Shown: positions 2,051 to 42,139 of the stretch, piece after piece
How the letters are laid out: each line of letters starts with the position of its first letter
How positions within the stretch are numbered: position 1 is the stretch's first letter
Source of the DNA: Paraspadella gotoi
Lineage: Eukaryota; Animalia; Chaetognatha
Direction: 5' to 3'
DNA: 64,000 nt
NCBI GenBank assembly: GCA_051294375.1
Contig: CM119265.1
Location: 6,891,489-6,955,488, forward strand
Made by a program: the position numbers and the translations under genes
The notes under the pieces: model-generated
The model's database searches: none
What the model saw: only the letters and a program-made list of their open reading frames with translations
What the model was told of the DNA's origin: nothing

Positions 2051-4254
2051 AATTTTTGCTTATAAAATCTGATGGCAAATACTATTCTAAGTTTTGATTC
2101 ACTACTCTATATATAAATAATATAATATATGATATATATATAAATATAAATAATTAAATATAGCTCACTGGTGCCAACCAATGTATAAAATTAAAAAATA
2201 AATTTACTAAAGTATTTTTATTGGTTTTTATTTTTGTGTTTTATATGCTAAATTTTCATTTTCTAAAATTTTATCATTTTCACATCACTCTAATGTACAG
2301 GGTTCGGATTTAAAACTTAAACCCCATAGGAAAAATTATTATTTCCTGATAAATCTGAAAAATTTAATTTTAGCAATTATTTAATCGATCTTCATGTTCA
2401 TGTTTAGCTTATGTCAGCTCTTCATTTTCCTTTTGACTCTTCCAAAGATGAGTAGCCATTATGAAAGTCTTTACGTTCTTGGTACGACTGTATATTAAAT
2501 AATGGGTCGAGAATGACATAATTTTTGTTACAAGTACAGCTAAGCATCATAATAAATTCGCCCTATACTGCATTATCCAAATGAATTTAGATACTATTAC
2601 ATGGAGCATAATGCCCTTAAGCCAAAATTGATAGAAATTATATCAAAATAAATCTTAGTATATCTTAATAATGTAGTATATTATGCTGTATAAATAAAAG
2701 ATATCGATATCGATTGTCTGGGACCTTATACCGGTAATTATATGGTACTTCAGGCTACTGGAATATACAGCAGCTTCAATTTTTTTAAATTATAAAATAC
2801 TGATTTATATTGTATGCTTTTGTTTTTGTTTTGGCTTATGCGAGAAATTTGATTTTTTGGTTGAGAATTTCTTTTAAGGTATTTTAATAGTCCTACAAGG
2901 TTCAAATTCTTTATCTCACTAACTTTATAAAAGTTACAGAGGCTGATGATATAATTTGTAATTTTTTAAAATTTAATTTTAAAAGAAAATAAAATTCCTG
3001 ATCTCTCCCTTTTATGTATAATACAGTATTTTTACCTTTACAAAAGCTTAGATGAAGTTCCATAGGGCTCTTATCCAGAATATTTTTTTGTTATCACAAA
3101 TATTAATGTATGCTGCAGTATTAATTTGTAGTAATAATTTTTTCATTAATACTATGGGACTTAGAATAACGTCAGGTTGTGGACGTTGAGAAATCCATAA
3201 ACAGTACCGTCTCATTACAACTAGAAAGAAACCCGTGAGGTTGATCATTGTAACTTTTGCATATTTATGTAGTTGGTTTTTAATTATTTCGGCGCAGAAC
3301 AAACATGACTCCTGGTTTTCGGTTGCTTCCCATACTAATGTTTTTCGACAAAACTAAATACAATCCAAAAGATAGAAAAATCCTTAACGATTCTTCCGCT
3401 ATAAAAAATAAAATTTTGTGAAACAATTGTAGGTGGGGGAGGATAAATTAGGGGCTAACTTTCAAGTCCGTACTCTGTAAAAAAAATTTTATTAATATAT
3501 TCCAAGGTTTAGTGAGGGAACAGGCTGAAATTTTTATTTTCTATAAGTTTTAACTATGAAAACTATAAAATAAAAATTGCCGTCATTGTGGTTGTGAAAA
3601 AGCTTTTGACATTCTGATTGCTCAGGCACATACTCCAACGTCTATATCTGTACAGGGACTTCAATCTGGACAGATACGAAAAGACTTGAATAAAACTCGT
3701 AATTCCTTCACTGTATATTATTTTTATAACATTTATTAGTTAGAAAACTACTTGACATTTATGTTGACCTAAAAAAATGTTCAAATTTCCTAATAGTATA
3801 ATCGCAGTCGCTCTCAAACACGGAGTCAGTTTTTTTCAATTTTTTCGTCCAAATTTTAATAGTTTTAACAATTTAACAATTTTTAACGCTGATTATATTT
3901 ATAAGAATAAAAAATTTTGGTAATAAAAAGTCAGTTTGGTGATTTGTTATTATTAAAAAAAATTCTCATATAAAACCTAACCTATTTATTGTGATAACTA
4001 ATTAACTATTATTTATCAACAAAGTCGTCTTTCATAATTTTTTTTCCCCAAACTACAATTTTTATTTTAGTATTATATCCCGGCTCTATAATTCACTTTG
4101 TCGGTCCGCCCCCCCAATCTTGTCGGGCTATCTTTTATAACATGTCAGAACATCAAATTATGATAAATTATGCATGGTAATTATCCTTTCTTTTTCGTTG
4201 TTTGAGAGATTAACAAAGTTTGATTTTATTTTTGCAACGAATTTTATTTTACAA

Positions 4255-4298
4255 GAGCAGACATGTTTCGGCTCACAATACGGGCCTTCATCAGCGCA
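4255..4298 (-). ncRNA. Minimal type I hammerhead ribozyme
   Basis: Minus strand GCG-CTGATGA-A-GGCCCgtattgtGAGCC-GAAA-CATGTC-TGC: intact core, one stem II mismatch. Confidence 0.8.
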
Positions 4299-4320
4299 TA
4301 TGAGTTGTGAACTGGATACC

Positions 4321-4479
4321 CGCCCGCCTCACCGTCAGGTGAGAAGAGGGCCGCCGGCAGGCGCATCAGGCCAGAGGGATATAAGGGTGGCCTTGGGTTT
4401 GTTTCCTCAGGGAACAATACCTGAACCAGCCAACACGAGATCAATCCCATTATCCTCTCAACCCATGACGCACCAATGA
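4321..4479 (+). pseudogene. 3' end of an unknown element-encoded ORF (copy 1)
   Basis: RPPHRQVRRGPPAGASGQRDIRVALGLFPQGTIPEPANTRSIPLSSQPMTHQ*, colinear with copies 2 and 5. Confidence 0.75.
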
Positions 4480-4728
4480 CCCGGCCCCGTCAGCAATACC
4501 TCTCCTTCATAAGACCGGGGGGGGGCCCAGCTCATTTTGAGCTCTTTCTTAATTCTTATATTTCACTACAATCTTTACTTATCTATCCCTCTAAAATCTC
4601 AATTTTCAACTTCTAAATTTCAATTTTCAACTTTTCAATTTCAAAAAATTAATTTATTTCAATTTGTTATTAAACAGTTTCCATTATCTTTATCTATGTT
4701 GTACATTGCTCAAATGTAATTATTTATT

Positions 4729-4772
<44 letters not shown>

Positions 4773-4931
4773 ACCAATTTTCACTTCTTTACAAAACTTA
4801 TTCAAACTAGCCACTTCTAAAAATCTGTCCTCACCACTGATCACTGTCCTTACTCAATTCTTTGTTGGAAACCTTTAACCCTCTCTCTCTCTTTCTTTAA
4901 CTAAAAACTTGTATCAAGTTTACAACTCATA

Positions 4932-4975
4932 TGCGCTGATGAAGGCTCGTATTGTGAGCCGAAACATTTCTGCTC
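4932..4975 (+). ncRNA. Minimal hammerhead ribozyme with mutated stem III
   Basis: CTGATGA at 4936-4942, stem II GGCTC/GAGCC, GAAA at 4961, then CATTTC in place of CATGTC. Confidence 0.65.
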
Positions 4976-5369
4976 TTGTAAAATAAAATTCGGTGCAAAA
5001 ATAAAATCAAACTTTGTTGATAAATTATGCAAAAAAAATGTCCGTCCATCCGTCCCACCTTAGCAAAATTACCAATTACTCGTGATTTGATGGAACGATT
5101 GGAATAAAATTTTTTGTGTGGGTAGGAAAGTGTGTGATTAATCTGGAAATCAAGTTTCGATGGAATCGTCCGAGTGGAAATGATTTAAAATGGAAAAAAA
5201 AAATTTTACGAGGAAGTGTCTGATTGAACAGGAAATAGTTTCAATGGAATCGTCCAAGTGGAAATAAGTTAGAATAGAAAAAACAATATATTTCACTATT
5301 TATTTTTTTTAAATTTTTATATTAGAGAGAGCAAAGAATTTTGAATTTAACAACGATTTTTTATTAGTA

Positions 5370-5414
5370 GTTGGACATGTTTCGGCTTGCTTATTTCAAG
5401 CCTTCATCAGCATA
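5370..5414 (-). ncRNA. Minimal type I hammerhead ribozyme
   Basis: Reverse complement of the 6361-6405 motif: CTGATGA-A-GGCTTG(7 nt)CAAGCC-GAAA-CATGTC. Confidence 0.8.
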
Positions 5415-5473
5415 TGACATTCAATAATAAGTTTTGTGCAAAAGAAGAGTGTGAGAGAGAGAGAGAGAGAGAG

Positions 5474-5849
5474 AGCCCCGCCGCCACCACGCCCGCACAA
5501 TGACTCCCCTATCTCCACTCAACGAGACAGGCGGAGACCCTTGCGCAGGCAATGGGCAAACGATGCCTCTCCCTCTAATGCAGCAACTCAGCCCCTCCCT
5601 CTGCGGACTGAGCGTCGCCCAAAGCGACGGCTTCAGGAGGAGGGAAAGGAGTCCGTCACTCCTGTCACAAAAGTGGCAAGAACGGACAACCGCCCACCTC
5701 GTCAGCAGGCGAGAAGAGGGCAGCCGGCAGGCGTATCAGGCCAAAGAGACATAAGAGTAGCCCTGGGGATCTTTCCCCAAGGATCGCTTCCCAATCCGGC
5801 ATTCATCAGTTCGGTCATACTCTCCTCTCAGCCACTGACACGCCAATGA
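5474..5849 (+). pseudogene. 3' end of an unknown element-encoded ORF (copy 2, longest)
   Basis: Basic, Pro/Arg-rich ~124 aa ending KRRLQEEGKESVTPVTKVARTDNRPPRQQARRGQPAGVSGQRDIRVALGIFPQGSLPNP...SSQPLTRQ*. Confidence 0.78.
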
Positions 5850-6142
5850 CCCGTCATCATCGTCCTTGTCCTTCATTTGCGTAAAACAAGGGGGGCCAGC
5901 TCACTTTGAGCTCTTTCTTTCCCTTGAATTTCACTTTCTTAATCTCCTAATTATCAACTAAAACTAAAAACTACTTTCTTTCATTTTCACTTAACTATCC
6001 CTTAGCTAATTACTTATTTATTCACTAGTTAAATGTTAAAATTTCTCCAATGTTATTTTTTCAAACTCCTTTATCTTTGTTGTACATTGAAAAAATGTAT
6101 CTTTATTATTTATTTATCTCTGTTGTTTTGTTTCTCTCTCTC

Positions 6143-6177
<35 letters not shown>

Positions 6178-6281
6178 AACAAGTTTCACTTCTTTTCACA
6201 ACTCACTCAATCTGTCCTTACCTTCAACCTGTCCTCACATCTGACCACTATTCTGTCTCACCACTTTGTTGGAAAAACTTT

Positions 6282-6325
<44 letters not shown>

Positions 6326-6360
6326 CTCTTCTTTTGCACAAAATTTATTATTGAATGTCA

Positions 6361-6405
6361 TATGCTGATGAAGGCTTGAAATAAGCAAGCCGAAACATGT
6401 CCAAC
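6361..6405 (+). ncRNA. Minimal type I hammerhead ribozyme
   Basis: CTGATGA 6365-6371, 6-bp stem II, GAAA 6392-6395, palindromic ACATGT stem III, GUC cleavage triplet ending at 6401; AATAAA 9 nt downstream. Confidence 0.82.
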
Positions 6406-8528
6406 TACTAATAAAAAATCGTTGTTAAATTCAAAATTCTTTGCTCTCTCTAATACCTATGAACAACGAAAAAGAAAGGATTAACGCATCAATTTTTATA
6501 TTAAATGTAAATTCAAGTTGCGTTAATTAATTATTAATAAATAAGTAATTAATTATTAATTAAATAATTTATTTTGTGATCGAGATTGCTGTTTTGTGAT
6601 TGAGAGACGAGACAAAACTTTTTTGACACGAATTAAAAAAATTAATATTAATTAATTATCTGATCAGCTGCTTACCGCTAATGATCGTGGGCAGATCCGG
6701 CATTGTTTGCTCAAACTTGTTTGATTCTTTTTCGTGATACATTTATTAGAATATCTTATTAAACATAAAAATGAAGCATGAGAAAAAAATTAAATTGTTT
6801 TAATGGTAACTGAAGGATTGATAGTAAGATCCACTTTCAAAGTAAAAATTTCAAAGTTAAAAATGCTTCTTCAGAAATTTACCCTCTGAGGAAAAAAGCA
6901 ACTATCCTACCTAGAATGTTACGAATTGGTGGGAAAAAAAAGTCGAGTATTTTTCTATTATTATGAAAAAATTTTATAACCCGATTGCTCTTCGTTTTGA
7001 TTATATTACAAGTCATTTTGTATCAGTATAGATTGAAGTAATTGTATGAACTAAATTTTTTTAACATTGTTTTTTTCATAAAAGTTTATCTAGTTGACAG
7101 GAAGGTCCTTTTCAAATTCCAATTTTTTTTTTTTTTGATTCGACCATGCCATTGATGAGCACATTACTAAGAAAGTAAGCAAGCTGGACTACTGGGGGTT
7201 GAAAAATAAAAAAACGTCAGCGATTTTTCTACCAGAGTTCAAAATCTGAAGTTGCTATAACAAATTATTTAGCCCCAGTATTTCATCTTTTCATTTCACT
7301 CCCATTTGAAATCCGTGTATATTATATTTTGTCGATTGAATGTTGAGATTTATGTATTTTAATATTACAGCGACAAAAGTGAATGCTCGGGGTCAATATC
7401 TGTGATAGAGAAATGCATCTCTGTAATTCACTTTTTATCGTCGCAATCGCTTGCGATGGTGGACGATGGTCCCCATAAATGGCGTTGTTGTTCCAAATTA
7501 TAGATCGTTTTTTTTGGTCGGATCTGCTTATCAGCAGATTCCGAATCTATAATTCACTTTTTCGGTCCGTTGGTCCCCACCCTCAATCTTGTCAGGAATT
7601 CACTTATATCATTCAGAACTTCGAATTATGATAAATTATGCAAAAAAAATGTTTGTCCGTCCAACAAAAAACACCTATTACTCGTGATTGGATGGATGGA
7701 TTGGAATGAAATTTTGTGTGTGAGTAGGGAAGTGAGTGATATAAAGTGAGTTGGATATGAAGTGAGTTGGATATGAAGTGAGTGAGTGATATGAAGTGAG
7801 TTGGATATGATATGATAATTTGATATCGCATCAATAATTCGTTATCATCGCATCAATAATTCATTATAATTGCATCAATAATCAATTAATCAATAATTCG
7901 TTATCGCATCTATCATTCGTTTTTTTTTCTGATTTTTCATTAATTTTCTTCTAATGTCTGTCGAGATCATTATACTTTAAAATTTTTTTTTATGCGATTG
8001 CGATGATCCTTATGCTTTTAAGATTTTTTTTATCCGTCTCAAAGAGCCAATTAATATTTAACAAAATATTTTGACTCTGTAGTGATCACTCTTACTCATT
8101 ACTTATCTCCTTTTTTTTGGTTTACCTAAAGAATAATTTATTTTGGTTGTTTATATTTTGATATTCCCATGAGGGATTTTTAGTAGAGTAGCAAATAATT
8201 TATTTTATCTCGCCAGAAGGGCTTAAAGCCCATCTTGGCGATATAATCGTTTAGAATTGCTTCTTTGTGCCATCGTCGTTCTTGTCGTCACGCTTTTTTT
8301 ACAATGGGAAATTGTAAAAAGCTAAAAAGCAAAAAAATTAGATATAGCTTTTCAACATCAAGATCTTTTAAAATGATATGTTTCATATCGATTCAAGTAT
8401 TTTTTTATTGAATTTCGTTTTCCTTATGATTTATTTAAATTGTTTGTAAATCTTTCTTTTCGTTGGTAGAATGATTAGACGAAATAACAATTTTCAGTTT
8501 TTCACAACGAATTTTTTATTTAAATGGT

Positions 8529-8571
8529 AGCAGACATGTTTCGAACGTGTATTTCGTTCATCATCAGTGCT
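8529..8571 (-). ncRNA. Minimal type I hammerhead ribozyme
   Basis: Exact reverse complement of 8749-8791. Confidence 0.85.
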
Positions 8572-8596
8572 GAGACTGAATTACAAAATTTGGTAA

Positions 8597-8667
<71 letters not shown>

Positions 8668-8690
8668 ACAAGCTTTATCCCTTTGTCTTT

Positions 8691-8723
<33 letters not shown>

Positions 8724-8748
8724 TTACCAAATTTTGTAATTCAGTCTC

Positions 8749-8791
8749 AGCACTGATGATGAACGAAATACACGTTCGAAACATGTCTGCT
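8749..8791 (+). ncRNA. Minimal type I hammerhead ribozyme
   Basis: AGCA-CTGATGA-T-GAACG(aaataca)CGTTC-GAAA-CATGTC-TGCT: 4-bp stem I, 5-bp stem II, GUC cleavage site at 8787. Confidence 0.88.
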
Positions 8792-9689
8792 ACCATTTAA
8801 ATAAAAAATTCGTTGTGAAAAACTGAAAATTGTTATTTCGTCTAATGATTTATTTAAATATACAAATTAGAATATAGTACTAATTATCAAGTAAAAATGT
8901 TTTTTAAAGTTTTGGGCACTTCCATGTCTTGGGGCTTAGGGGCAAAAGGGCGAATTTAAAAATTCTACCTGAGGAAAAGTATATTCGAAAATTTTATTTC
9001 CTTTTAATTTTATCTTAAATAAAAATTTTAGGGAACCTGGAAAACTTCATTTCATAGCACTGGTAAATTAGTAATATACAAAAATTTGACAATGAAAAAA
9101 ATTTTCTGTAATCTATAGACATGAAATTCTTTTAATAACTACACGCCATATATAATGACTACTTATGCTGGAAGAAATCAGCGAAACGTTTTCCTTTTTT
9201 TTTTTAATTAGTACTAGCGCTTCAGAAATATTAAGAAAGTTGAAAATTTTATTCTGAAAAATTTTATCTTTTAATGCATACGTTTTGAATTATATCTCAA
9301 AAACCATTGGCATCTTTCTTCATGGATCGGCATAAAAATATACAAAAAATAAATTGGTATCAATTCTCTGATGGGGTATATACTTAACCCTAGCATTTTA
9401 AGCGGGTTTTACCTTTAACCCTAACCCAGGCTTTATTTTTAAGCCTTAACCCAAAACCTAGATTGTAATTTATTCAAATAATGATGAAGCGGGCGATTCA
9501 CGCATACTCGTAGGTGTGGTTTTAATTGGTTGACGACTTTGCTATGGCAATATCGCCAGAGCCTTAGCGGCGATTCCAATACCCGTACTGGCGACCTCGC
9601 CAGTGATAAAAGTAATGAATATAACAAAAGGCGCGAATTAAAGGGCCCTTTCTCCAATTTAATTCTAAACCAGGTTTCCATACATTTCA

Positions 9690-10368: not shown

Positions 10369-12932
10369 GGTATCAATTATTGATTATCATCGTATCAATT
10401 ATTGGTTATCATCGCTTCAATTATTGGTTATCATCGCATCAATTATTAGTTATTATCGCATCAATCATTTATTATCATCATATCAATCATTTATTATTAT
10501 TGTATCAATTATTGGTTAATGGTTAATTGGTTATTATTGCATCAATAATTTGTTATCATCGCATAAATAATCAATTATTATTACATCAATCATTCTTTTT
10601 TTTTAGATTTTTCCATTAACTTTTTTTGATAATAACGTCTGGCGAGATCACTATACTTTTAAGATTTTTATTTTCTCAGCTTTAGGTTGCTTACTTATAA
10701 AGGTCACAAAGACTAAAAATTTTTATTTTGTAAAAAAAAAACGAAACTAAAATACTTACAATTCCTTCCGCCATATTCTTTTGTAGGAGGTTGCCATTGA
10801 TTGTTTTTTGATTAATTTATTTTTATTTAGAGCTGTAAGAAATATGCTTCAACCATCCTGATATGTGGTACTTACCGATAATAAAAATTTTATAAATTAA
10901 TAAATCTATAAAGAAAAAGGTTTCTCTTAAATTTTGTAAAAGATTTAACTTTTATACAGACGCAGCAAATAAATAAAAAGTGAGGAATGAACAACATTGT
11001 ACAAATAAACTTTAATGTATATAAAAATTTTATTATAATTTTTATAATTTACGCAGTAGGATATATTTATATATAGTACTAACCCTATAAATGTTAAAAT
11101 GGTTTGTTATAAGATTTTTTTGCAGATTTGGATTCGTCATAAAAAGTTGATAATAAGAAATATAACTTTTTAAAAAAATTCTTTCTTTCAGTTGTTTAAA
11201 AATCGGAAAAACCTATATTTTAGCTGAAAATTAAATATATACTAAAAAAAATAAATAAAAATAAAAATAAAAACAAACCAAAAAATTGTTTAACATATAC
11301 TTTAATATTTCATTCGTAATATGTATCCCTATCAGAACATATCATTCTACTAGTAGTCTTATCCTTATGATAAAAATAATCATACAATATAACAATAATC
11401 CCAACCAAAAAAATTATCCATTCCCCCTCTATTTGTTTGGCCTTGTAGATATTATGAGTTTCTCATTAATGATTTTCCAACTGGAATGATGTATATCTAT
11501 ATATATGTATATGTATGTATATTTATGTATATCTATTAGAAACTGGAACAGAAAGTAATCTAATCTTGTGTTGTGTAGATGCACCCTCTATTTCCCGAAG
11601 ATAACACTAATGTCCCCATCCCAAACATATAAATAATATTATATTTAAATATTTAACACAAAAATATTTTAACAAATAAATAAAATCATAAATAATATTT
11701 ATTTTAAATCTAAAAAATAAAGATAGTGAAACAAGTAAGTTTGCAACTTTCATAAATATATAGTTATATATATTTATATATAGCTTACTGCGAAAAAAAA
11801 TATTTAAAAAAATATAAAATAATTTTTTTTTTGAATTAATGTTCACTAAGGCGTAGTGAAAGTTGCAGATCAAAATTCGAATAGTTAATCATGAACAGTA
11901 TTAAAGAACATTAAGAAATTAAATTTTTTTAAAAAAATTTTCCAATTTCATACGCCCATATAAGTCTTAATCGTAAATTCTTTCATTAAGTTAGCTAAAA
12001 ATTAAAAAACTATATTTTTTATACTAAAATTAAATTATAAGTTAACTATAACATTTTTTTTAGGATTTTGACCCTTCTAAAAAAAGTTATATTTCCTTTT
12101 AACTTTTTTAAGGAATTCGAATCTGCTTTCACAAATAAGAAAAAAACATTTTAAAATTTTTATATTTTTTATAGCGAGTACTATTTATAAATATGGACGT
12201 ATGCGAAAATTGAAAAATAAATATTTTTTATTTAAAAATGTTCACATAAACAAGCCTGTTTATGATCTACTATTCGAATTTTGATTCAACTTGATTTTAA
12301 TATTTTTGCTACGCTTTAATGTTCACTGGTAGTACGTTGTTCATAATTGACCATTAGAATTTCCATATGTGACTTTCATTAAGCTCTAATAAATATTGTA
12401 ACATGTCTCAATCTTTTCATCGCTCCACCCTATTATGCAGTATGAATCAGGTGTCTACAATGCTTCTAAATAATTAGTCGGTTCAATTGACATCCTCAGT
12501 ATTGAATCTATTGATGTGTGAATAAAATACTATTTTAAAATTTGGCGACCGAGATTTTTTTCTTAAACGTCGCATTTTTGTTAATTTTTTCTTTTTTTAA
12601 TATACTGTTTGCCTTCGAGATACTTAACAGTTCTTACGTATAATTTATTTTCCTAGATATATAACGAAACCGAAATTTTTGAAAAATTCATATTTCATTG
12701 ACGATAAAAATTTTGTCTTGGGGTCTTTTGGTTTAAAATTCGTGACGGTTTTTGTTTATTTCAGCAAAAACAGCGCAGTTTTTTGTTTAAGATTGAGTAT
12801 TGTTTAAATTCATTGACAGTAATTTTTCGATTCTTTAACTGTAGATCAAATGTTTTGCCAGTTTAAAGTCAAATCTTGTCAGAAAATCTCCATATTAGTT
12901 AAATGAGGAGAAAATAATTTAATAACACAATA

Positions 12933-14769: not shown

Positions 14770-15703
14770 TAATATGAGTAATTTTGTTCGAGTTTTTTTC
14801 ATAATATTTTTTTAATAATATTTAACCATTAGTCACATTCTTTCATTTAACACAAAGAGAGAAGTTCTTGGTTTCTCATAAAATAAAAGGTGTTTTTAAT
14901 TGGGGTGTCTTGAAATAGTTATGGGATAGGAATATGTGCGCCTATTGATATTTTTGTAGTATTCTTCCGCTACCGCTCAAAGGATGAATGCACATTTATA
15001 ATACAGGTTATTCCTAAAAAAATACCCAATAATCTGGAGTATACACTATGCACTGCTTTATAAAACGTCCCTTTTTTCACACCCATAAAAATTAGTTGGT
15101 TGTTTAAAGTCTAATGGACCTTGCATGTGAATGGTGAGGTTGTTTGCTTCGTTGTATAGAGAGTTACAGGAGGCTAGGATTTTGCCGACAACGTGCTCAA
15201 CCACTTCTTTCTTTAAAATGAAGGCATCTCTTCGCCATCTTCTCGCTGGTTGAGAAATACATAGTGAGAAAAAAAAACATCCATAAAGGTTTTATTAAAA
15301 CAGGCGTTATTTCTGTACATAATTTTTTTCGAATGAAATCTCTGTTGATGCATCAGCATCGCAGGAAATGGACCAGTGTGCTGTAATTTTTTTTTAAATT
15401 TTGGTTTTGTTGGTTATCTAGGTTTGTTTAAAACCAGCATATTAAATAACGGCATTCTTTAAAATTATTAGTGCCAGATCTCTCGTTAACTTATTGTTAA
15501 CGTTTGACAAATTAAAATGCCTTACGATATTGTAAGCATAAATTTTCAGCCCAAATAATTCCTTTGTAAAACAATATTTTGTTTTCATGTAGAACGAATT
15601 CAATGCGACATGACCGCCAAAGAACTATTTTAAGGAATGACTAAATCAATAATAACTTGATCGACCACCTACAAGTGAGAAATCCTGCGAGTCTAACAAA
15701 GGG

Positions 15704-16453
15704 ATGTCGTTCACCGATGAGGACTACCTCCCCTGTCCAGCCGAGCTTGACGTGCCGCAAGAGCTCAATGTGAGCGCTCCTGTGCTGCGGGCCGCGGCTC
15801 ATCACATGGGGAAGTATTGCGATGAGAAGAGCAAAGAGTTTATGCTCTGCCGCCGCGAGGAAGAGGATCCTCGAAAGTGCTTGGACGAGGGAAAGGCCGT
15901 CACAGCGTGCGGCGTCGAGTTCCTCATGAAGATTAAAGAACACTGTTATCATCAGTTCACTGAGTACTGGCAGTGCGTCGATTACTGGGGCGGAGATTAC
16001 GGGGTCGGAACATATGGGAAGCTTAACCTTTGCCGCCAGAAACAAATTCCGTACGACGATTGCGTCCTCGAGAATTTAAACCAGGAACGAGTTCATTATG
16101 GTTATTTTGGAAGAATTCGCCTACACGATACCTGCCGACCAAAACCTGTGGATATTCCCATCAAGCACGCGCCCGTCGACGAACCCCCGAAGGAGTTCAG
16201 TTGCGAAGAAATCGAGGCGGTTAAAGAAAGCCTGGAAGGACTTTCTACGGAAAAGTTTCAAGCGTACTTTCAGAAACTGATTAAAGACATGCCACAGGAA
16301 GAGAAAAAGATGTTTTATTCATTAAGTCCGAATAGGAAGTACCTAGGTAACGACCCTAATACTTATGGGCCTGATAATAATTGGTATTGGAACGCTAACT
16401 ACCCCCGCGATTATAAGCCAAGTCGACAATACACTAGCGATTTTGGAGTTTAA
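15704..16453 (+). CDS. NDUFA8: NADH dehydrogenase (complex I) accessory subunit NDUFA8 (twin CX9C), single exon, C-terminally extended
   Basis: 249-aa ORF: ELNVSAPVLRAAAHHMGKYC...EFMLCR...DPRKCLDEGKAVTAC...HC...FTEYWQC...CRQKQ..YDDC...RPKP, matching the NDUFA8 cysteine pattern; AATAAA signals follow the stop. Confidence 0.93.
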   Translation: MSFTDEDYLPCPAELDVPQELNVSAPVLRAAAHHMGKYCDEKSKEFMLCRREEEDPRKCLDEGKAVTACGVEFLMKIKEHCYHQFTEYWQCVDYWGGDYGVGTYGKLNLCRQKQIPYDDCVLENLNQERVHYGYFGRIRLHDTCRPKPVDIPIKHAPVDEPPKEFSCEEIEAVKESLEGLSTEKFQAYFQKLIKDMPQEEKKMFYSLSPNRKYLGNDPNTYGPDNNWYWNANYPRDYKPSRQYTSDFGV

Positions 16454-18267: not shown

Positions 18268-21200
18268 ATGATAGCGACTATCGGGCGTCGCGCCGTCCAG
18301 GCTGTTTTGTCGAATCCATCTCCGAGCCACGCTCTCTCGGGCGTGCGTAATGGCAGTGGCGGCGGCGGCGGGGTTTGGGTTTACCGCCGTATTCAAGAAG
18401 CTGAGCCCATAAACACACGATATTGGTCGTATATTATGTCAACCTTCTTTTGGTACTGGGTATTCACTTTTTTTTATTTCGAACCTGAATACTTTTTTGG
18501 TCACACTCCCCCGCCGGATCCTGAATCCTTTACAGACGAAGAATTAGGAATTCCTTGCGAACAGGTTACGTATAGGAAAGATTTTCCACCTCCCGCGATT
18601 ATTTTTTTTTCCAATACGTCGTCAATACTTTTTTCTGCAATTACTTTTTAGCCGGATCTGCTTAACTTTGTCGGTCCGTCAGTCCGCCCCCCCAATTTTG
18701 TCTCTAAGTCACTTAAATCATGTCAGAACATCGAATTATGAGAAATTATGCCAACAAGTTTGAGCAAACAATGTCGGATCTGCCCACGATCATTATCGGT
18801 AAATAAATTAAATGAGTTTAAATGGAAAAAACATAAGTAACATTTACTTGAATCTTTTTACTAATTTGAACCTTTATTATTCGAAATAATTTTTTAATTA
18901 ATTAATAGATTGAGATGAAATTTTGTGCGTGGGGAGGAAAGTGATTGAGCCGGATATAAAGTTTCAATCGAAAGAACCAAAGTCAAGTTGACTTGAATTT
19001 TTATTAATTATGCTTATTCATGAATGTTTTAATTATTTAAAATTTGATTTATAAATCAAATTAAAATAATTAGATATATATGAAAATTTACAAATTACTT
19101 GTTTCACTATTTTCTATTTTAATATTTTAATATTTTTATGAAGGATTTAGTATTTAATCTATATTATTTAATCAAACATATATTGCTTTCTTTTTTAAAA
19201 ATGTTTTATCTAATAATTCAATTTGGGAAGGGGAAGTCAGTGTTATCTTCTGGAAATAGAGGGAGCATCTATACAACACAAGGTTAGATTACTATCTGTC
19301 CTAGTTTTCTAATAGATATCACACATCATTTCTGTTAGAAAGTCATTAATGAAAAATCATAATATCTAAGAAGCTGAACAGAAAAGGATAATTTTTTGAG
19401 GGGGGACCAACGTTATATATGATTTTTTTTACCAATAGGGATAAGACTACCATGTAGAATTGTATGTTCTGATAGGGATACATACTGGGGAAAGGTCTAT
19501 AGGGGCACCTTTATGTCATGAATATAATTTTAAAATACTTTAATGAAAATTTTATTTTTTCTTTATCCTATTTTTTAATTATTTCTTTTTTGAATATTTT
19601 TTATCTTTTATGTTTATACAATGGGAAGGTAATCAGTTGGGAACCTATACCCTTCATGGATTTCGGCTCTTTAATCCCAATATCCAGGTATATTAGATAT
19701 AAAGTTTCGATAGAATCTTGCGAGCGAAAGTGAAAAAAAAGTAACATTTACTCTTGCTCTCTATCTTGCTCTCTCTCTTGCTCACTCTGCAAGTTACAAA
19801 AATTATACAAGTTGAATAAATTATATGGGTAAAAAAAAGATGTTAGTTGAAAAAAATGCAGGTTTAAAAAATTATGTGAGTTAAAAAAAAATTATGCGAT
19901 TTTAAAAAAAGGAGCGAGGTAAAAAAAAATGATGCAAGTTTTAAAAATGATGCATTTTAAAAAAATGAGGCAAGTTGAAAAAACAAATCTAGTTAAAAAA
20001 ATTATTTGTATCATACTATTATTAAATATAATCAGTATATTTTTATATATTTTTATCAGTAATCACTTAAGAAGTATAAATACTTTAAATTTATATCTTA
20101 AAAAGAATTAATATGACAGTTTGCTATCTACAATTTAATAAAACCCCCAAAAAAATTCAAACCCGAGTTTTTTTTTAAAAAACACAGGTTTTTGCCAACC
20201 CTGTTTCCGAATTTATATTGAATTTTTTTTTTAGTAGCTTCCTTTTATTTTTTTGTAGGTCAAATCATTTAAAAGTTACTTTATTATGAAAAATGGCGAA
20301 AAAAATGTATTTAATTTTCCACCATTTTTGGTATTTAGTTATTTGTTTTATATTAACTAGTTATTTTTTAAATATTTTTTTAATTTAACAATGCTAAAGG
20401 CCTTGCACCTCTTTCTGGTTCAAAAAAGTATTATTATAGCTTTCAGAAAAGAGGAAAAGATGCGCAACATTAATATCAGGGCTGCGCAGAATTGCGTTAA
20501 AGATGTCGAAAAACATTTTGCTGTCATACCTCAATTTGCTGTATAAGAGCATACCCAGATAAAGGCAGGCAGTAGTTGATGCCGAGGAAGGGTATACCAA
20601 ATATTGAGAATGTTATCATTATGTTTTACCCATGTTTTATATACTTTTTATTGAATAAATGAATTATGTCATATACTTTTTTCCTAAATAGTACATTTTT
20701 TTCCTATTTTTATCGTTGCACGGAAGCGATAATCGAGCTTTGAATGTGATTCTATATACATGGTGACAATTTTACAAGCGCTGTCATTTGCAAACCAGTG
20801 GTTATTTCATTGATTTTAAAAATTAGTTGAGTAGAAAATATTAAAGTCATTTATGTGTTCAATTTTTTTATTGATCAGTTAAGATATGCTTTGGCAATAG
20901 TGAGAAAGTTGGCTTGTAAAATCGGGTTTCATTTTCCAACTCACTGTTTTTTTTTTTTTTCAACTTTTAGTACTTTTTAAACAAAGTATTTATTAAGATA
21001 TTAACAATATTAATATCCTCAGAAAGCCCTTAAAAAAATGAAGAGAATGATATACTTACGAAAGCTCTAACATAAAAATTAAGAGAGTCAAAAGTTAATT
21101 ATCTAAAATTTTAAATATTTTTTTAAAATATATGATCTGTTTAAATTATTATAATATAAAATATTATTATTTATATAAGTATCATGAAAGAGCCTGAAAA

Positions 21201-21467: not shown

Positions 21468-22535
21468 ACTTAATTCATTGTCTATGTAATTTGTAAAAAA
21501 AATGCGTGTCACTTATGACTGTTGAGAGTACTGATAACAATGGCGAGTTGCGGTTTAATTTGCTTTTTCAATTTCAACTCTCTAGGCAAAGTAGAATATA
21601 GAATACACATTGTGCCCCTTAAAAATTGTCTTCAAAGCCGAGCGATAAAATAATACTACGATAAATTCCGTCCTTTCGTCATCACTATGTTGGACATCAA
21701 CTCTCGTTGTGGTTCGTCGATCTTATAACCCCGCTCATCAATTATATCTTTTTAACATGTTATGACGAAACACATATTTCAGAACGTCATTGAGACGAAC
21801 ATTTTAATTTCGTCGACTTCACGAAGTTTCGACAGTCCTCCATCCAAGAAATCTATTTTGTGGCTCATGAGTCCAACTTAGAAAGTGTTGGTTCGTTTTT
21901 ACTTCGCCAGATGGGTTAAAGACCGACTTGCTATTACATCAATCAATTGTTATTACATCAATCAATTGTTATTGCATCAATCAATTGATATTACTTCAAT
22001 CAATTGCTATTACATCAATCAATTGCTATTACATTAATATATATGCTATTACATCAATCAATTGCTATTACATCAATCAATTACTATTACATCAATAATT
22101 TGTTATTGCATTAATCATTCTTTTTTTTTCAGATTTTTTTATTAATTTTCGGCGAGATCACTATACTTTAAGATTTTTAGTTTTTAGTCGGGTCTGATTC
22201 TCGCAGATTCCGACTTTATAATTCATTGTCGGATTGACAGTCCACCCCCACAATTTTGTAAGAACATCAAATTATTATAAATTTTGCAAAAAACATGTCT
22301 CCGTCCGTCCGTCTATCCGTCCGTCCCCCTCTGCAATTACTCGTGATTGGAAGAATGGATTAGAATGAAATTTTGTGTGTGGCTAGGAATTGGTGTGATG
22401 GAGCTGGATATGAAGTTTTGATAGAATCGGGCGAGTCGAAATGAGTTTAAATGGAAAAAAAATTCATGTTTTTTCGAAATCTTTTACTTATATTTAGTCT
22501 AATTATTCTAATTATTAAAAATTAGATAGATAAAT

Positions 22536-22767
22536 TGTGTTTATCTTTTTTTCAGTGTTTTTTTCAAAACTTAAAAGCTCTGATAAAGGCTTGAATTAAA
22601 GCCGAAACATGTCACTCCGGTAAATAAAAATCGTTGTTGAAAAAAAAATATTTTGATAGATAAATCAAAACACTGATGAAGACTCGAACCTGTCAAGAGT
22701 CGAAACATGTCCGTTAATAATGTCAATTACAAATTCCTTGTAAAAAGTAATAAAAACTTACGTTTTC
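22536..22767 (+). mobile_element. Two tandem short hammerhead-bearing pLTR fragments of the same family
   Basis: Motif 1 at 22580-22613 (CTGATAA variant, GGCTT/AAGCC, GAAACATGTC). Motif 2 at 22673-22711 (CTGATGA, GACTC/GAGTC, GAAACATGTC). Each is followed by the family's AT-rich 3' segment. Confidence 0.72.
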
Positions 22768-25339
22768 GATGGATAAATTAAAATTTTATTTTATATGTGG
22801 TTATATGATTAAACTGGATATAAATTTTTGATAGAATCGAAGGAGTGGATAAGTGTTTAAATTAAAAAACCAAAAGTCACCTTTACTTAAATTTTTTAAA
22901 AGATTCTCTCTCTATATCTCTCTCTGATTTATTTATTTTATTGATTAGCTGATTGATAATTTTTAGTCGGATCTGCTTTCTGAAGATCCCGATTCTATAA
23001 TTCACTTTGTCGGTCCGCCCCCCCCAATGTTGTCGGGCATTCACTTACATCATGTCAGAACATCGAATTATGATAAATTATGCAAAGAAAATGTCTGTCT
23101 GTCTCATTGTGTCTGTCTGTCCGTTCGTCCGTCCCACATTAGCAAAAAGCTCCAAAAACTCGTGATTGAGTGGTTGGATTGGAATGAAATTTTGTGTGTG
23201 GATAGGAAAGTGTGTGATGGAATCGTGCGAGTGGAAATGAGTTAAAATGGAAAAAACATAAGTCTCATTTACTAAAATCTTTTTACATATTTTAACATAT
23301 TTTAACCAATAATTACTCAAATTAATCATAATTGAATTAATAGATTAAGATGAAATTTTGTGTGCGGGTAGGAAAGTGTGTGAAGAAGCGAGATATCAAG
23401 TTTTGACGGAATCGTGCCAGTGAAGATGAGTTTAAATGGAAAAAAACATAAGTCTCATTTACTGGCATACCATTTTTTTGCTCAAAAACCCTTTTTTCAT
23501 AAAGTTTTATGTAAATCTTTAGAGGGAATACCCTATTTTAAGTTTTTCCAGGTGAAGGAGAAGAGAAACAATATCCATGCATCAAAAAGTTAATCAGATT
23601 TATATTTTTTTTTCTTTTCCTTAAAAAAAACCTTTAATCCAGCAATAAAAAAATTATCATTTATACTATTATGTAAAATCCTTTCTTTTGTCGCGTTTTT
23701 GAATTAGAAAGAGTTTGAAGTTTGAAGCAACAATTTTTTTTAAACAGTGAAAATGTTTTTTTTTTCAATATGTATCTCTCTCTCTCTGGCCTAAACCTAA
23801 CCTCTCTTCCCCTCGACCTCTATCCTTTTCTCAAATCTTTGTTGAAAATTTTTTTCTCTCTCTTTCTCTCTCTCTCTCTTCCCTTACTCACCTAATTCTC
23901 ACTCTCTCTTCCTTTCTCTCCTCTCTCTCCCAAATATTTCTTGTGATGTAAAAAACTGTTGACAATTCATAAATATGGATGAAGACTTGAATTAAAAGTT
24001 GAAACAAGTTCACTGTTTAAAATCTGATACGAATATAAGATCAGTTTTAATAAGCTGTATAAACTTTATTAATTATTTTTTTCTATTGAGTTTCATTTAA
24101 CTTTAGTCCCAAGGGTTTTATAACTAAGACGACTCTTATTCAAACCTTGAGTATATCATATCAAGTTTCATTATAATAAATAATACAGCAATATAAAATT
24201 ATTAAATATTTTATTGTTTTGACAAGGAATAACATATATTTAGTCTTAAGCAATTCATAGTAGAATTTACAAATTCATTTTTATTACTTTCATGCGAATA
24301 TTTTGATTCTTATTAACAAATCATTTTTCAAGGCAGTTCTTTTGTATTTTGCTCCTCTCTCTTTCTCTCTCTCTCTCTCTACCTGACTTTTTCTGGAACA
24401 ATTTACTTTTACTCTGGACTGCCTTTAAAAATGATTAGTTCATAAGAATCAAAATGTTGGCAAAAAAGTAAGAATATTATACTTATAAATCCCACCACGA
24501 ATTGCTTAATACTAAATATTTTTTTATTCCTTGTCAAAAAAAAAGTTTATATGCTTAATACTAAATCATTATCTCCTGTGCATATGAAGTCTCTTCAACA
24601 ATGAATAAAGAAATAATATTAATTCTGAATTTTAACAGTTACTAAAAAAGTATCTTTTGTAACTGATATTTATTTTGTCTATATAGAGCTATGATAGTTT
24701 TTTATGATTATATAATTCTTTGTGATACAACCATTATATTTATAGTAGATCAAGAACTATTAATATTGCGTATTTTATCAGTTTTTGAGCGTCTTTTTCG
24801 GTTTTGGACACGCCCACTATGGGTAAGAACATTTTTAAAAAAAAATTTTAAAGTAAAACTTATTAAATAATGAGAGTAACTTAAAATTTAGGCAATTATT
24901 ATTTTTATAAAACTATTTTCTTATCTTGCAATTAAAGAAAAGAGAAAAATTCCATGTTGTAGTCAACGTCAACTTCCGGTCAATTGTGCGTAGGTCTAAC
25001 CCAAAATCTGATTGAGGACACCTTGTTAATCGTTTTACGCACTTAAAATTATACTAGAAACTGTACAGGATTGTGAAAATTTTCGACTGAATGGTTAAAA
25101 AAAAAACAGTGTACTCATCATGACTTATCTGTTTAGCTGCTTACCGCTAAGTTATCGCAGGCAGATCCGACATTGTTTGCTCAAACTGGTTAATTGTAAA
25201 TTAGTTATCGGATTAGCGAAGTAACAATTGTATACTTTCCATATTTTGTCGTACATAGTATTTCGCAATTATATTTTTAATGATTTTCTTATGATTACGA
25301 ATATTTAAATATATATTTAATTTCTTTAGTTTGGTAAAA

Positions 25340-27925: not shown

Positions 27926-28136
27926 TAAATAAATATATCCCATTTGAAATATGAATATAATTTGTTTATTTTTAACATTTAAACTAAAATGGTCCATTAA
28001 AAAGAATCCGAGAATGCACAAACTACTAATGATTGGTTGCTCAGTAAGTTATTGTCGATTTGTAACCATTAGTTTACATTTTTTTTTTAGTCATTTTGGC
28101 TACATTAAAACGTTGAATTCCATTAATAAATCAACA

Positions 28137-31100
28137 ATGGGTGAAAACGAATCTCAGTTAAAAGGATGGCTTTACGGGTGGCTCGGAAAACGCGGCGTTA
28201 CTCCCGACTACAGTATGCGTCAGACTATGACCAAGAACAAACAGACCCGTTTTATATCCGAGCTTCGCGTCGATGGCTTCAATTATGTCGGTCATGGAAA
28301 CTCCTCAAATAAGAAGGACGCACAAACCAATGCCGCTCGTGACTTTTGCCAGTTTCTTGTCCGAACAAAAGAGTTAAAGCCAGAGGATGTTCCAGGGTTG
28401 CAACCCACTGCCACAGAGTTCATCGGGAACGCTCCTGTAGAGAATCCCGATGACAAAGAGGCGAACCGGACGTCACTTCCCTTTGCACCCATGCCGCATC
28501 AGTCTGTCGGCGCTGCTTTGGGTCTCACAGGTGCCGCCGGACCCAACTTAGATGTGGCGCCGTATCAACGCGGTCCACCACAGGAGTACCTGGCCAAAAT
28601 CGCGCTGCAGCAGCAAAAGCGCGTTGAGGATGCTGAGGATCTTGATATGACAGCCACCAAACATGGGAACTGGACGTTAGAAAATGCTAAAAGCAAATTA
28701 CACCAGTTTATGCAGGTTAATCGAATTTCTACTGACTACAAATATTCCGCTTTTGGCTCAGATCATTCGAAATCATTCGCTGCCGAGATGTCTTTTTATG
28801 TCAAGAGTATCAAGAAGACTGTGCAAGCTAAAGAGCATGGATCAAACAAACAGATGGCTTCCAAGGCTTGTGCGCTCTCTTTGGTGCGACAGTTATTTCA
28901 TCTTGGCGCCGTCGAAGCTTTTTGTGGAACTTTGGCGCGAAAGAAGGAAGTTGATGCGATGCCCCCATTCGCAGTTGGAACTAATTCTGCTCTTAAGGAA
29001 AAACTCATTGCATTTGTGAAAAAGATGCAGCTTAAAGTTGCAGCAGCCCCCAATGAAGGGTCAGAACCTGCGAATCTAATAATCGGTGATCGACTAAAGG
29101 ATTTTGAAACTAATAAACCACAGCGTGGGGGCGTTGTCGCTTGGTCTCCACCAGCGCCTAATTGGAACCCATGGACCGGATGCAATATTGATGAAGGCCC
29201 TTTGTCTTACACACCTCTGGCTGATATTTCCAGGGATCTTCGAGAGGCACAAGTTCAACGCGTTCAGCATGATGAGCAGTTACGCGCCATTGGACAGGAA
29301 CGATGCAAGCTGCCAGTTTTCCAATTTCGACAGTCCATTCTTGACATAATCGAAAAAAATACCGTTGTTATCATCAGGGGGGCCACTGGATGTGGGAAAA
29401 CCACCCAGGTACCTCAATATATTTTAGAAGATTGGATTGATAAATATAAAGGAGGGGAATGTAATATTATTGTGACACAACCACGCCGCATTTCCGCCGT
29501 ATCCGTGGCGGAGCGCATGGCCGAGGAAAGATGCGAGGAATTGGGCCAATCAACCGGCTACAGTGTTCGTTTTGAATCTTGGCTTCCACGTCCATATGGA
29601 AGTACCCTTTTTTGCACAGTTGGCGTTCTACTCAGGAAGTTAGAAGGAGGCCTGAGAGGTGTAAGCCATGTAATCGTCGATGAAATTCACGAGCGAGACT
29701 TAAATTCTGACTTTTTACTAGTCTTGTTGCGGGACATGGTGAAGGCATTCCCAGATATGAAGGTCATACTAATGTCAGCGACTATTGATACATCACTTTT
29801 TAGTGAATATTTTGGGGGTTGTCCAATTGTTGAGGTCTACGGTCGAACACATCCAGTTCAAGAGTATTATCTTGAAGACTGTATCCAGATGACGAGCTTC
29901 GTTGCCCCGCCGCCAAAGAAAAAAGCTAACAAAACAAACAAGGATGATTCTGACGAAGAAATGCCAGACGAAGACCCGGCCCTGAGTGAGAATCTTAACA
30001 AAGTGTGTGCTGCTGATTATCATGAGCAAACGAAACGTCAAATGTCGGTTCTAAGTGAGAAGGAGATCTCTTTCGAGTTAATTGAATCCTTACTTAAATA
30101 CGTCAAAAGTCTCAACACTCCGGGTGCGGTCCTGATTTTTTTGCCTGGGTGGAATCTTATCTTTGCTTTAATGCGCTATTTACAGGAGCATCCGTTATTT
30201 GGGACGGCTTCGTACAAGATTTTGCCTCTTCATTCGCAAGTGCCAAGAGAAGATCAGCATAGGGTTTTTGAAGTTGTTCCTTCAGGCGTTACTAAGATTA
30301 TTCTTTCCACGAACATTGCCGAAACATCTATCACAATCAATGATGTTGTCTACGTAATCGACTCTTGCAAGGCCAAAATGAAGCTGTTTACCTCGCACAA
30401 TAACATGACCAACTACGCCACTGTCTGGGCTGCTAAAAACAACTTGCTCCAAAGACGAGGACGGGCCGGCCGTGTTCGCCCCGGCTTTTGTTTTCATCTA
30501 TGTTCTCGAGCCAGATTTGAAAAACTCGATGAGCATATGACGCCCGAGATTTTCAGGACTCCTCTGCACGAAGTTGCTCTGGCAATTAAGCTCCTGCGCT
30601 TGGGTTCGATCAAGGATTTTTTGAGCAAAGCGATGGAGCCTCCGCCCATTGATGCAGTGACCGAGGCAGAATTAACTTTACGTGAAATGAACGCCCTGGA
30701 TGAGAACTATGAGCTGACTCCACTTGGAGCTATTCTGGCGCGCCTCCCGATCGAGCCACATCTTGGAAAGATGATTGTTCTTGGATGTATTTTAGGAGTC
30801 GGTGACGCCGTCTGCACAATCGCTGCTGCATCCACGTTTCCCGAACCGTTTCTTACATTTGGAAAAAGATTACCGCAGATGCATCGGAGGTTTTCCGGGA
30901 CACGTTATTCGGATCACGTTGCTCTCTTGTCCGTTCAGCACTCTTGGGAGGAGTCAAGAACAGGAGGTGAGGAACAGGAGTTTAGGTTCTGTGATACGAA
31001 GTCGCTGGCAATGCCTATTTTGAGAATGACCTGCGAAGCCAAGAACCAGATTCGTGATATCCTCATCAACTCTGGTTTCCCGGAAAGTGCCGTGGCCCCT

Positions 31101-31868
31101 ATAAATTTTAACTACAACGGACCGGATATCAAGCTCGACCTACTCATATCAATCCTCGTCATGGGACTCTATCCGAACGTCTGCTTTCACAAAGACAAGC
31201 GCCGTTTAATTACCATGGGGGGGAAGCCAGCGCTCATACACAAAAACTCCGTCAACTGCTCATCTTTCGATACGACCTTCCCCAGTCCGTTTTTCGTGTT
31301 TGGCGAGAAGATCCGCACCCGCGCGGTCTCGGCTAAACAGATGACCATGGTAAATCCCCTGCAGCTTCTGCTTTTCGGGTGCAGCAGATGTACATCTGAC
31401 GGACAAGGTCTGGTGGTTATGGACAATTGGATAAAATTGCAACTAGAACATGAATTGGCGGCAAGTATACTGGCTCTGAGGCCTGTCATCGACGCGCTGC
31501 TCGTGAGGTGCTCTGAAAATCCCGAGAGCATGTCGACCCCTGATGAGACAGACGGCGAACTCGTAGCATTGATTCAAGAACTGTCATCTCAAGATGCGGC
31601 GGACTATGGTATTGATCGAGCCGTCTCTAACCCTACCTCCGATTTTGGCCCACCACCTGCGAAATTTTCACGTGGAGGAAGTTTTGCTCCGAGGGGCGGA
31701 TTCAGGGGTGGTTATCGAGGCGGTTTTAACGAAAACTTTGGACCGAGGGTCCCAGGATTCAGTCGAGGTTTCCGTCCCTTATTTGCTGTAAGATCGAGAG
31801 GATATGCTGGTCCGAGGGGATTCGGTGGGAGCAAGTTTGGCGGTGGGAGAGGACGAGGATTAATGTGA
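28137..31868 (+). CDS. DHX9: DExH-box RNA helicase A (DHX9/maleless), intronless coding region
   Basis: Two N-terminal dsRBDs ([13 protein letters not shown]; [10 protein letters not shown]), [31 protein letters not shown]2/OB-fold region and a C-terminal RGG tail. The likely ATG is 28137 ([18 protein letters not shown]). Confidence 0.96.
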
Positions 31869-32975: not shown

Positions 32976-33613
32976 TACCTCGAAATATATTTTTAGGCAT
33001 CCACATGAACTTTATAGGTCAATTAAATCATTTTTTCCAAATTTTTTTAAAATTCTTATTTGGTTATATTTTTTTTCAGAACCACCTTTTTTTATTCACA
33101 TCTATAGGGACTTCAGGTTATGGTGGAATTTTGTAAAATATACGTAATATACAGAAGAATTCATATCATAAAGGATGTCGTGTTTTTAGACCATACTCGG
33201 TTTTGACCAAAGAGACGGAATTTGACTCTATGTATCACCTTAAAAATACAATTAGTATTGAGGCAAATTTCGTTATTCAACCTCTGAGCTAAGATGCAGC
33301 ACCCTCGGGTCAGTTTTAATCTCCCGTGTTCTCCCCCTGCAGGCTGCGGTCCCATAACTTGGTTTAAGACTTGAATTTTAAAATTTCACTTGATAGATCT
33401 TTTTGTATAATTAACTAGTATCTCAAGTGGTACCGAATTTCATTAAATTTGGGGGAGAAATTTAGTTGGAATTGATTATTTATGGTATAAAAAAACGCAT
33501 TATCATTTTATAATATGAACCCTTGTTTACATGTTTTTGAACTAAAAAAATACATTAAGGATTATTATAACCAAACCAGAAAACTTAGTTGCATGGTATA
33601 TTATCCATTTGAC

Positions 33614-41662: not shown

Positions 41663-41721
41663 TGTCGGTCCACAGTTTATAAGAACGTTTATGAAACACT
41701 CTTATAAACTGTGGACCGACA
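41663..41721. other. Isolated perfect 22-bp inverted repeat (59-nt hairpin) upstream of BLTP1
   Basis: TGTCGGTCCACAGTTTATAAGA (15 nt) TCTTATAAACTGTGGACCGACA. Confidence 0.85.
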
Positions 41722-42139
41722 CAGTTCCAAGCTATATCTACCACTATTGCAATCATTTTCTATCTTTTAATAGTTGCAATTAGGGACAATTATTTGTATT
41801 ATATCGCCGCTGACGATGTTGTTAACCTTTTTGGATTTATCAATATGTAGCAGTTTGAATATATCCTTGAACTATATGAATACTATGTACATACATACAT
41901 AAAGGATTTTCTAAAGTTAATTTGAGCATACATCTTTGGTTCTGATTGGTTTTCAGTTTTAGTAATTGGATAAGTGCACTAAGTCATATCCTATCGTAGT
42001 TGCTACACGTAGTCTTTTTTTCGTATGTCCTACGCGTTATACTAATGCAAGAAAAAAAAATGTTCTCCCGAAGTTTAGTGGATGATTTTGGCGATGGATC
42101 ATATATTACTATTCCCTTTTGAATTAGGATGTTAATAAG

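Follow-up and report, generated by a model that had tools for sequence, protein, structure and literature searches.

Inserted copies of Penelope-like elements (PLEs) have been described as carrying an inverted copy of the element's pseudo-long terminal repeat (pLTR), an optional 31-bp tail, and a target site duplication (TSD) (PMC3846280), with the inverted copy 5'-truncated and a tail of 30 to 40 bp on one side (PMC8557442); these and the other papers discussed here are cited for portions of their text. Minimal hammerhead motifs of PLEs have a base bulged 5' of stem II, a palindromic variant of helix III, and low activity, and occur as opposite-strand pairs 100 to 700 bp apart (PMC4209133). 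The PLE protein of Anolis cuts and extends both strands, using two internal reverse transcription starts that bound the tail, with a dimer predicted (PMC11167929). Here we analyze insertions of this kind in a 64,000-nucleotide (nt) stretch of DNA (the window) from the chaetognath Paraspadella gotoi (GenBank assembly GCA_051294375.1, contig CM119265.1, positions 6,891,489 to 6,955,488 of the forward strand; window coordinates are used below). An earlier note on this DNA had read three insertions, with relatives near 36.9 and 63.7 kb, as a recently active family of palindromic, twin-hammerhead retroelements with an architecture of its own. We conclude that they are very probably 5'-truncated insertions of several endonuclease-bearing (EN+) PLE subfamilies, and that their palindromes likely arose at insertion and were not copied as a unit. 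The Penelope-like identity proposed in the note is upheld by the inverted pLTR, one-sided tail, TSD, and minimal hammerheads; the new architecture was overstated, as the layout is the PLE insertion pattern already described (PMC3846280, PMC8557442, PMC4209133).

Insertions bounded by target site duplications of three lengths

The three complete insertions, E1 (4175-5017), E2 (5325-6490), and E3 (8441-8844), lie where they had been placed, and the exact repeats around them agree with the claimed 13 to 15 bp: 14 bp for E1 (4161-4174 and 5018-5031), 13 bp for E2 (5312-5324 and 6491-6503), and 15 bp for E3 (8426-8440 and 8845-8859). As a chance control, 20,000 random pairs of 40-nt windows were compared, and a 13-mer was held in common by 0.025% of them. 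The 14-mer target of E1 also occurs once, unfilled, in each of the paralogous repeats at 7629, 23071, and 33733.

An inverted pLTR copy flanks the unit in 3/3 complete insertions, and the two arms of each are, as had been claimed, nearly perfect inverted copies (5/107 mismatches in E1, 3/151 in E2, and 0/154 in E3; 95 to 100% identity). From the mismatches in E3 and E1 we judge E3 to be young and E1 older, so that recent activity holds for at least one copy. Arms of different insertions are 59 to 72% identical, and each insertion therefore represents its own subfamily, in keeping with the diversified family that had been proposed. E1 begins with its tail (4175-4212, minus strand; tail-only part, 4175-4208), followed by a short inverted copy (4213-4319, minus strand; hammerhead core from 4294 to 4260, with a single stem II mismatch), and ends in a direct untailed arm (4911-5017, plus strand; hammerhead at 4936-4970, with a mutated stem III palindrome). 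E2 has an inverted untailed arm (5325-5475, minus strand; hammerhead from 5410 to 5374), a direct arm (6300-6450, plus strand; hammerhead at 6365-6401), and a terminal tail (6451-6490, plus strand). E3 has a tail (8441-8475, minus strand), a tailed inverted arm with a (GA)n run (8476-8671, minus strand; hammerhead from 8567 to 8533), and an untailed direct arm (8683-8844, plus strand; hammerhead at 8753-8787). The tail side thus differs: the long copy bears the tail in E2, the short copy in E1.

A tail of 33 to 37 nt at one end only had been ascribed to all members; E1 to E3 do have it on one side, and the 36.9-kb relative has tails at both ends. Measured from the TSD, the tails are 38 nt (E1), 40 nt (E2), and 35 nt (E3), or 29 to 35 nt if the junction microhomology is assigned to the arm. 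In E1, E2, and E3, respectively, tailed ends lie 85, 89, and 92 nt past the predicted hammerhead cleavage site, and untailed ends 47, 49, and 57 nt past it. The head-to-head junctions are also of different kinds: an imperfect 11-nt overlap in E1 (4309-4319), a position within a (GA)n run in E2, and an 11-nt spacer in E3. At the untailed junctions, microhomology spans 1, 5, and 2 perfectly matching bases (within the first 6, there are 3, 5, and 5 matches), which is too weak to claim in AT-rich DNA.

The layout is closely similar to that of Pen2a and Pen2 of Adineta vaga and to the scheme of Craig et al. 2021, with a 5'-truncated inverted pLTR, a 30- to 40-bp tail at one end, a TSD around the unit, and a palindrome or microhomology at the junction (PMC3846280, PMC8557442). 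The A. vaga elements differ in having TSDs of 8 to 10 bp in the cited portions, against 13 to 15 bp in E1 to E3, and E1 and E2 differ from them in a 3' untranslated region (UTR) of 456 to 515 nt with (TC)n runs and in the end of an open reading frame (ORF) of at least 123 amino acids (aa) without an endonuclease match.

A common ORF end under purifying selection

The sequence between the arms had been described as a variable core, and the ORF end in it was overlooked. E1, E2, and the 63.8-kb copy (E5) have homologous, coding cores, which translate to one common ORF end with the stop codon at the identical place (E1, 56 aa plus stop, 4309-4479; E2, 123 aa plus stop, 5'-truncated, 5478-5849; both plus strand). 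It is followed by homologous 3' UTRs with (TC)n runs, of 456 nt in E1 (4480-4935) and 515 nt in E2 (5850-6364); E3 contains no ORF. Because these cores hold the same 5'-truncated ORF end and 3' UTR, the insertions are stumps of coding elements and not a palindromic mini-family.

The ORF end is colinear in E1, E2, and E5, without an indel over 52 codons, and the ratio of nonsynonymous to synonymous substitution rates (dN/dS) over these gap-free codons is 0.24, 0.33, and 0.49 for the three pairs (Fisher p 9e-5, 0.002, and 0.06). Four control frames give dN/dS values of 0.9 to 2.5, and the antisense frame in register gives 0.41 to 0.70 with two to four stops per copy. The ORF end is under purifying selection. 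In E2 its 123 residues have an overall isoelectric point of 12.0; the first ~80 are rich in Arg, Pro, and Ser with 11% hydrophobic residues, and a conserved block follows in which SGQRDIRVALG is invariant. All three ORF-end sequences are likely disordered. A reading of QRDIRVAL as a PCNA-binding motif (PIP box) was dropped since the aromatic pair is missing, and no PLE paper was listed in a literature search on this point.

Sister copies of E2 were examined in four public runs, all of them assembled contigs, of which 854, 752, 170, and 167 were placed at 80%. Sister contigs in runs X1 and X2 extend in frame upstream of the E2 junction (loose end, 5484), and their ten directly upstream codons, read by eye, give LIK(T/P)VVERPT, which may resemble the end of PLE endonuclease domains. 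Among the 12 indels listed, one of 3 nt is in the ORF and 11 are in the UTR; 13 further indels lie beyond the listing.

Comparison of the ORF end with Pfam gave only a weak compositional match, a weak negative for so short and low-complexity a query. A single metagenomic locus (L001, 1 of 529 candidates) was rejected because it is a GC-rich, regulator-like bacterial gene read in the antisense frame, and viral contigs yielded nothing, either by protein search or by hammerhead pattern. A literature search that covered mostly open papers, and neither Repbase nor the PMC8557442 sequence supplements, listed nothing on such a C-terminal motif, which is no proof of novelty.

Since this protein end is selected across subfamilies whose arms are ~65% identical, it points to a function outside reverse transcriptase (RT) and endonuclease, one that goes unmentioned for hammerhead-bearing animal PLEs in the cited portions of PMC3846280, PMC8557442, PMC4209133, and PMC11167929. 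With the layout already known, the locus mainly contributes a further host with numerous PLE subfamilies, both young and old; its new parts are the basic ORF end, which has at least 123 aa and for which no homolog was found, together with a weak conserved stem, described below, that has the untailed end in its loop. Both the selected ORF end and this start-site stem merit attention across the whole genome.

Hammerhead motifs and the putative start-site region

A scan of the window for CUGANGA-stem-GAAA gave 10 matches, all within these elements, and a degenerate eleventh at 22580. The CUGANGA / GAAA / NUH core of a minimal type I hammerhead, as in PLEs, is present, with a stem I of 3 bp (67% paired) and a stem III of 2 bp with a 2-nt loop inside an ACAUGU palindrome. 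The covariation noted earlier in stem II is confirmed: over nine aligned arms (excluding E2L and E3L, which are near-identical twins) it is 97.8% paired, with double-sided changes at 4/5 pairs, and its score of 0.45 was reached by 0/500 shuffles and compares with 0.04 to 0.12 in slid controls, the shuffle ignoring the relatedness of the arms. The earlier statement that each arm carries GAAACATGTC does not hold; the motif is broken in the right arm of E1 (ACATTT) and in the arms at 36.95 kb (ACATGCC) and 63.8 kb (ACTTGT). With the copy at 22580, these make up the 4/11 motifs with changes in core or stem III, and the left arm of E1 has one C-A mismatch in stem II. Rfam models run on the window at E values up to 1 gave no hammerhead match, only chance matches of microRNA hairpins to the E3 palindrome, and the hammerhead call therefore rests on motif and covariation. 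The motifs resemble metazoan PLE hammerheads (Cervera and de la Pena 2014) in the CUGAUGA core, the base bulged 5' of stem II, the short stem I, the palindromic helix III, and the opposite-strand pairs a few hundred bases apart, and differ in a stem II of 5 to 6 bp compared with 7 to 8 bp (PMC4209133).

It had also been proposed that either strand of an insertion gives a self-cleaving RNA. There is one minimal hammerhead per strand, a type that needs a partner, and in predicted folds of whole insertions, on either strand, it is sequestered in the arm-arm helix (mean pairing probability 0.94 to 1.0). Because these predicted folds lock it in place, self-cleavage of read-through RNA is unsupported by prediction. 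Single arms folded as monomers are predicted not to form the full hammerhead, and in cofolding of arms an ACAUGU dimer helix is the predicted minimum in 2/4. The hammerheads are probably the element's ordinary pLTR motif and are predicted to be inert in these copies.

Downstream of the hammerhead, 6/6 tailed arms can form a stem of 6 to 8 bp between (U)CGUUG, past an A-rich tract, and CAACGA in the tail (in E2, 6419-6426 with 6462-6469). Its loop is 34 to 44 nt and its end lies 18 to 21 nt short of the tail end, the tail ends of E5 and of the 36.9-kb copy (E4) being estimated; there is a double change in one arm and a G-U pair in another, and in E1 to E3 the loop contains the untailed end. The 14 substitutions listed from the public contigs all lie outside the hammerhead core and stem II. 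Poseidon of Anolis carolinensis (PAc; Frangieh et al. 2024) is alike in having two ends one tail apart past the hammerhead, an AT-rich target, and a start-region stem-loop (PMC11167929). The PAc ORF starts in hammerhead stem II; an ATG there is followed by an early stop in 5/6 tailed arms here. In EN+ PLEs the ORF begins within the stretch covered by the tail; the tails here read as short open frames (NNEKERI-like) in which no common start codon was found. The distance from cleavage site to tailed end (85 to 92 nt) equals the 111 to 118 nt of PAc minus 26, a correspondence that we do not count since the matching PAc site is not identifiable. The six natural variants of the start region are a ready set for in vitro study of start-site choice and of the tail, a step left open in the cited portions of PMC11167929.

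Related copies in the window

The claim that a relative at 36.9 kb shares the architecture of E1 to E3 does not hold. E4 (36830-37348, approximate ends) consists of two tailed copies from different subfamilies, head to head, with hammerheads at 36953 (minus strand) and 37217 (plus strand) and no TSD; the copies are 67% identical and are joined at a short quasi-palindrome near 36985-37015. It may be a nested insertion or a single event from two RNAs. Around it lies an older element (36043-38312) with terminal inverted repeats of ~440 to 600 bp that are 71 to 82% complementary, resembling a miniature inverted-repeat transposable element (MITE) or foldback element. At the other relative, E5 (63670-64000, approximate left end), a tailed inverted arm with a hammerhead at 63797 (minus strand) is present as claimed, next to the ORF end at 63810-63995 (plus strand); the element continues past the window edge, where its second end would lie.

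Two short untailed direct copies lie at 22536-22767 (plus strand), with hammerheads at 22580 (mutated core) and 22673 and an 11-nt target repeat at 22525, 22655, and 22768. They belong to different subfamilies (62% identical) and, being direct, indicate that the family makes inverted and direct insertions alike. Within 22525-22778, one 11-nt target was apparently used twice.

Probable route of insertion and alternative explanations

The mechanism that fits best is double target-primed reverse transcription by a PLE RT-endonuclease. By analogy with the activities reported for the Anolis protein (PMC11167929), the element's endonuclease would cut both strands of AT-rich DNA with a stagger of 13 to 15 nt, and each freed 3' end would prime reverse transcription within the element RNA, downstream of the hammerhead. 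Priming at a near start, 47 to 57 nt past the cleavage site, would leave no tail, and priming at a far start, 85 to 92 nt past it, would leave one; the near start would lie in the loop of the weak conserved stem and the far start ~20 nt beyond the stem. Both cDNAs would end early, a short overlap or (GA)n run would join them head to head, and fill-in would produce the TSD; the longer cDNA would have crossed the 3' UTR and entered the ORF end in E1, E2, and E5 but not in E3. The differing tail sides and arm lengths (107, 151, and 154 nt) are what assembly anew at each insertion would be expected to give, and the three different TSD lengths in AT-rich DNA, the empty paralogous site of E1, the simple direct insertions at 22.5 kb, and the selected ORF end also favor this reading. 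Two classes of ends across the family would also fit the summed contig depth, which drops 1.8- to 3.0-fold across the untailed end at 6452/6453 in 4/4 runs.

Several observations weigh against this reading or parts of it. Contig depth is no measure of copy number, and one run is possibly the window's own source. The tail stem has a weak consensus energy (-1.7 kcal/mol, its covariation term being unfavorable) and is the best long-range helix in only 3/6 arms (shuffle p 0.02 to 0.28). For the ORF end, the E1/E5 pair is nonsignificant when taken alone, and in the sister contigs 12/31 listed substitutions are synonymous, against 27% expected (p 0.10, not significant), with no stops; these figures cover the listed variants, and there are 185 substitutions beyond them. 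Homologs of the ORF end were absent from 544 longer and 269 near-length candidate proteins, a search of 1.84 billion representatives gave 0 matches, and a search of the ESM Atlas gave no usable match, each a weak negative for such a short low-complexity query. EN+ PLEs encode a telomerase-related RT and, in canonical clades, a C-terminal GIY-YIG domain; Pfam gave no GIY-YIG match in the last 123 aa of the ORF end, and neither RT nor GIY-YIG was found in the 88 non-host ORFs of at least 62 aa in the window. The absence of RT is expected because the copies are 5'-truncated, and a GIY-YIG domain may precede the truncation point, in the stretch over which the sister contigs stay in frame. With no RT- or GIY-YIG-encoding parent recovered, PLE membership rests on the noncoding hallmarks. 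The origin of head-to-head palindromes has also been explained by self-priming on an antisense template (PMC3846280), which may, by analogy, be an alternative origin of those seen here.

That the palindromic twin-hammerhead unit is itself mobile, as a nonautonomous, retrozyme-like element self-cleaving on either strand and copied whole, would suit the 95 to 100% identity of arms within an insertion, the TSD enclosing the whole unit, and the lack of coding sequence in E3, and nonautonomous hammerhead-bearing PLE derivatives have been described (bioRxiv 10.64898/2026.07.22.740005). We nonetheless consider it very improbable: no two insertions have junction, arm length, or subfamily (59 to 72% identity) in common, the cores are truncated ORF ends under selection, and predicted folds of read-through RNA sequester the hammerhead. 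Moreover, PAc hammerhead mutants still insert in vitro and the PAc ribozyme did not cleave in the absence of protein (PMC11167929), and the retrozymes of the preprint are tandem direct repeats. These non-LTR retrozymes (Li, Clavereau, Pollet 2026) are alike in having type I hammerheads on noncoding PLE derivatives, and the 22.5-kb pair is a direct tandem; they are unlike in that our units are head to head with ORF ends and form no single-unit tandem arrays, the 22.5-kb pair being two subfamilies separated by a target repeat. Long inverted arms within a TSD would also be expected if these were DNA transposons of foldback or MITE type, bearing long terminal inverted repeats, an explanation that is largely refuted and to which we attach almost no weight. 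The TSDs are of 13, 14, and 15 bp and not of the one fixed length of a MITE; the tail of 35 to 40 nt at one terminus means that the termini are not inverted repeats; and the covarying hammerheads, 5'-truncated ORF, and direct solo copies are further points against it.

It is also conceivable, though improbable, that the parent has PLE-type ends and a different coding layout, with the ORF end being part of a protein with permuted domains, or of an ORF that is separate or was captured, between the pLTRs. The lack of a Pfam or database match would be accounted for, unrelated genes can be mobilized in trans by pLTRs (PMC3846280), and some Chlamys elements have C-terminal extensions and extra ORFs (PMC8557442). 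However, a one-off capture is unlikely given that three diverged subfamilies have this ORF end in an identical position, the possible likeness of the upstream LIK(T/P)VVERPT codons to the end of endonuclease domains would speak against this layout, and canonical hammerheads are missing from Naiad and most Chlamys elements in the cited portions of PMC8557442. A bolder proposal, which we hold tentatively and with more doubt than confidence, is that this is an undescribed PLE lineage in which the endonuclease is followed by a long, basic, flexible arm whose tip module (RQxRRG..AG.SGQRDIRVALG.FP.G) would dock on a host factor or on the element's own RNA, with the conserved near-start stem serving as a ruler for the two RT starts and E4 being one insertion primed from two RNAs; if so, E4 would be direct evidence of two independent priming events.

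Genomic setting

The 64-kb window is AT-rich, has many interspersed repeats, and contains host genes for a DHX9-like helicase, BLTP1, TAF11, and NDUFB2. E1 is inserted into an abundant dispersed repeat, marked by a conserved TGATAAATTATGCA stretch and found at 4077-5300, 7511-7763, 18662-18970, 22175-23460, and 33608-34747, and the 22.5-kb copies sit between two of its members. The right flank of E2 (6492-6617) is likewise a high-copy repeat in the public contigs. Other repeats include an inverted 590-bp pair (1457-2047 and 19079-19663; 95% identity) with an older copy near 11320-11780, and two more small inverted-repeat elements lacking hammerhead motifs (24214-24542 and 41663-41721). A putative NDUFA8-like ORF at 15656-16453, without a Pfam match, has an apparent C-terminal extension of ~70 aa. 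Host exons at 27948-31868 and 42128-60902 are very long, with the DHX9-like helicase occupying a single frame of 1306 aa and BLTP1 three frames (1614, 2246, and 1338 aa).

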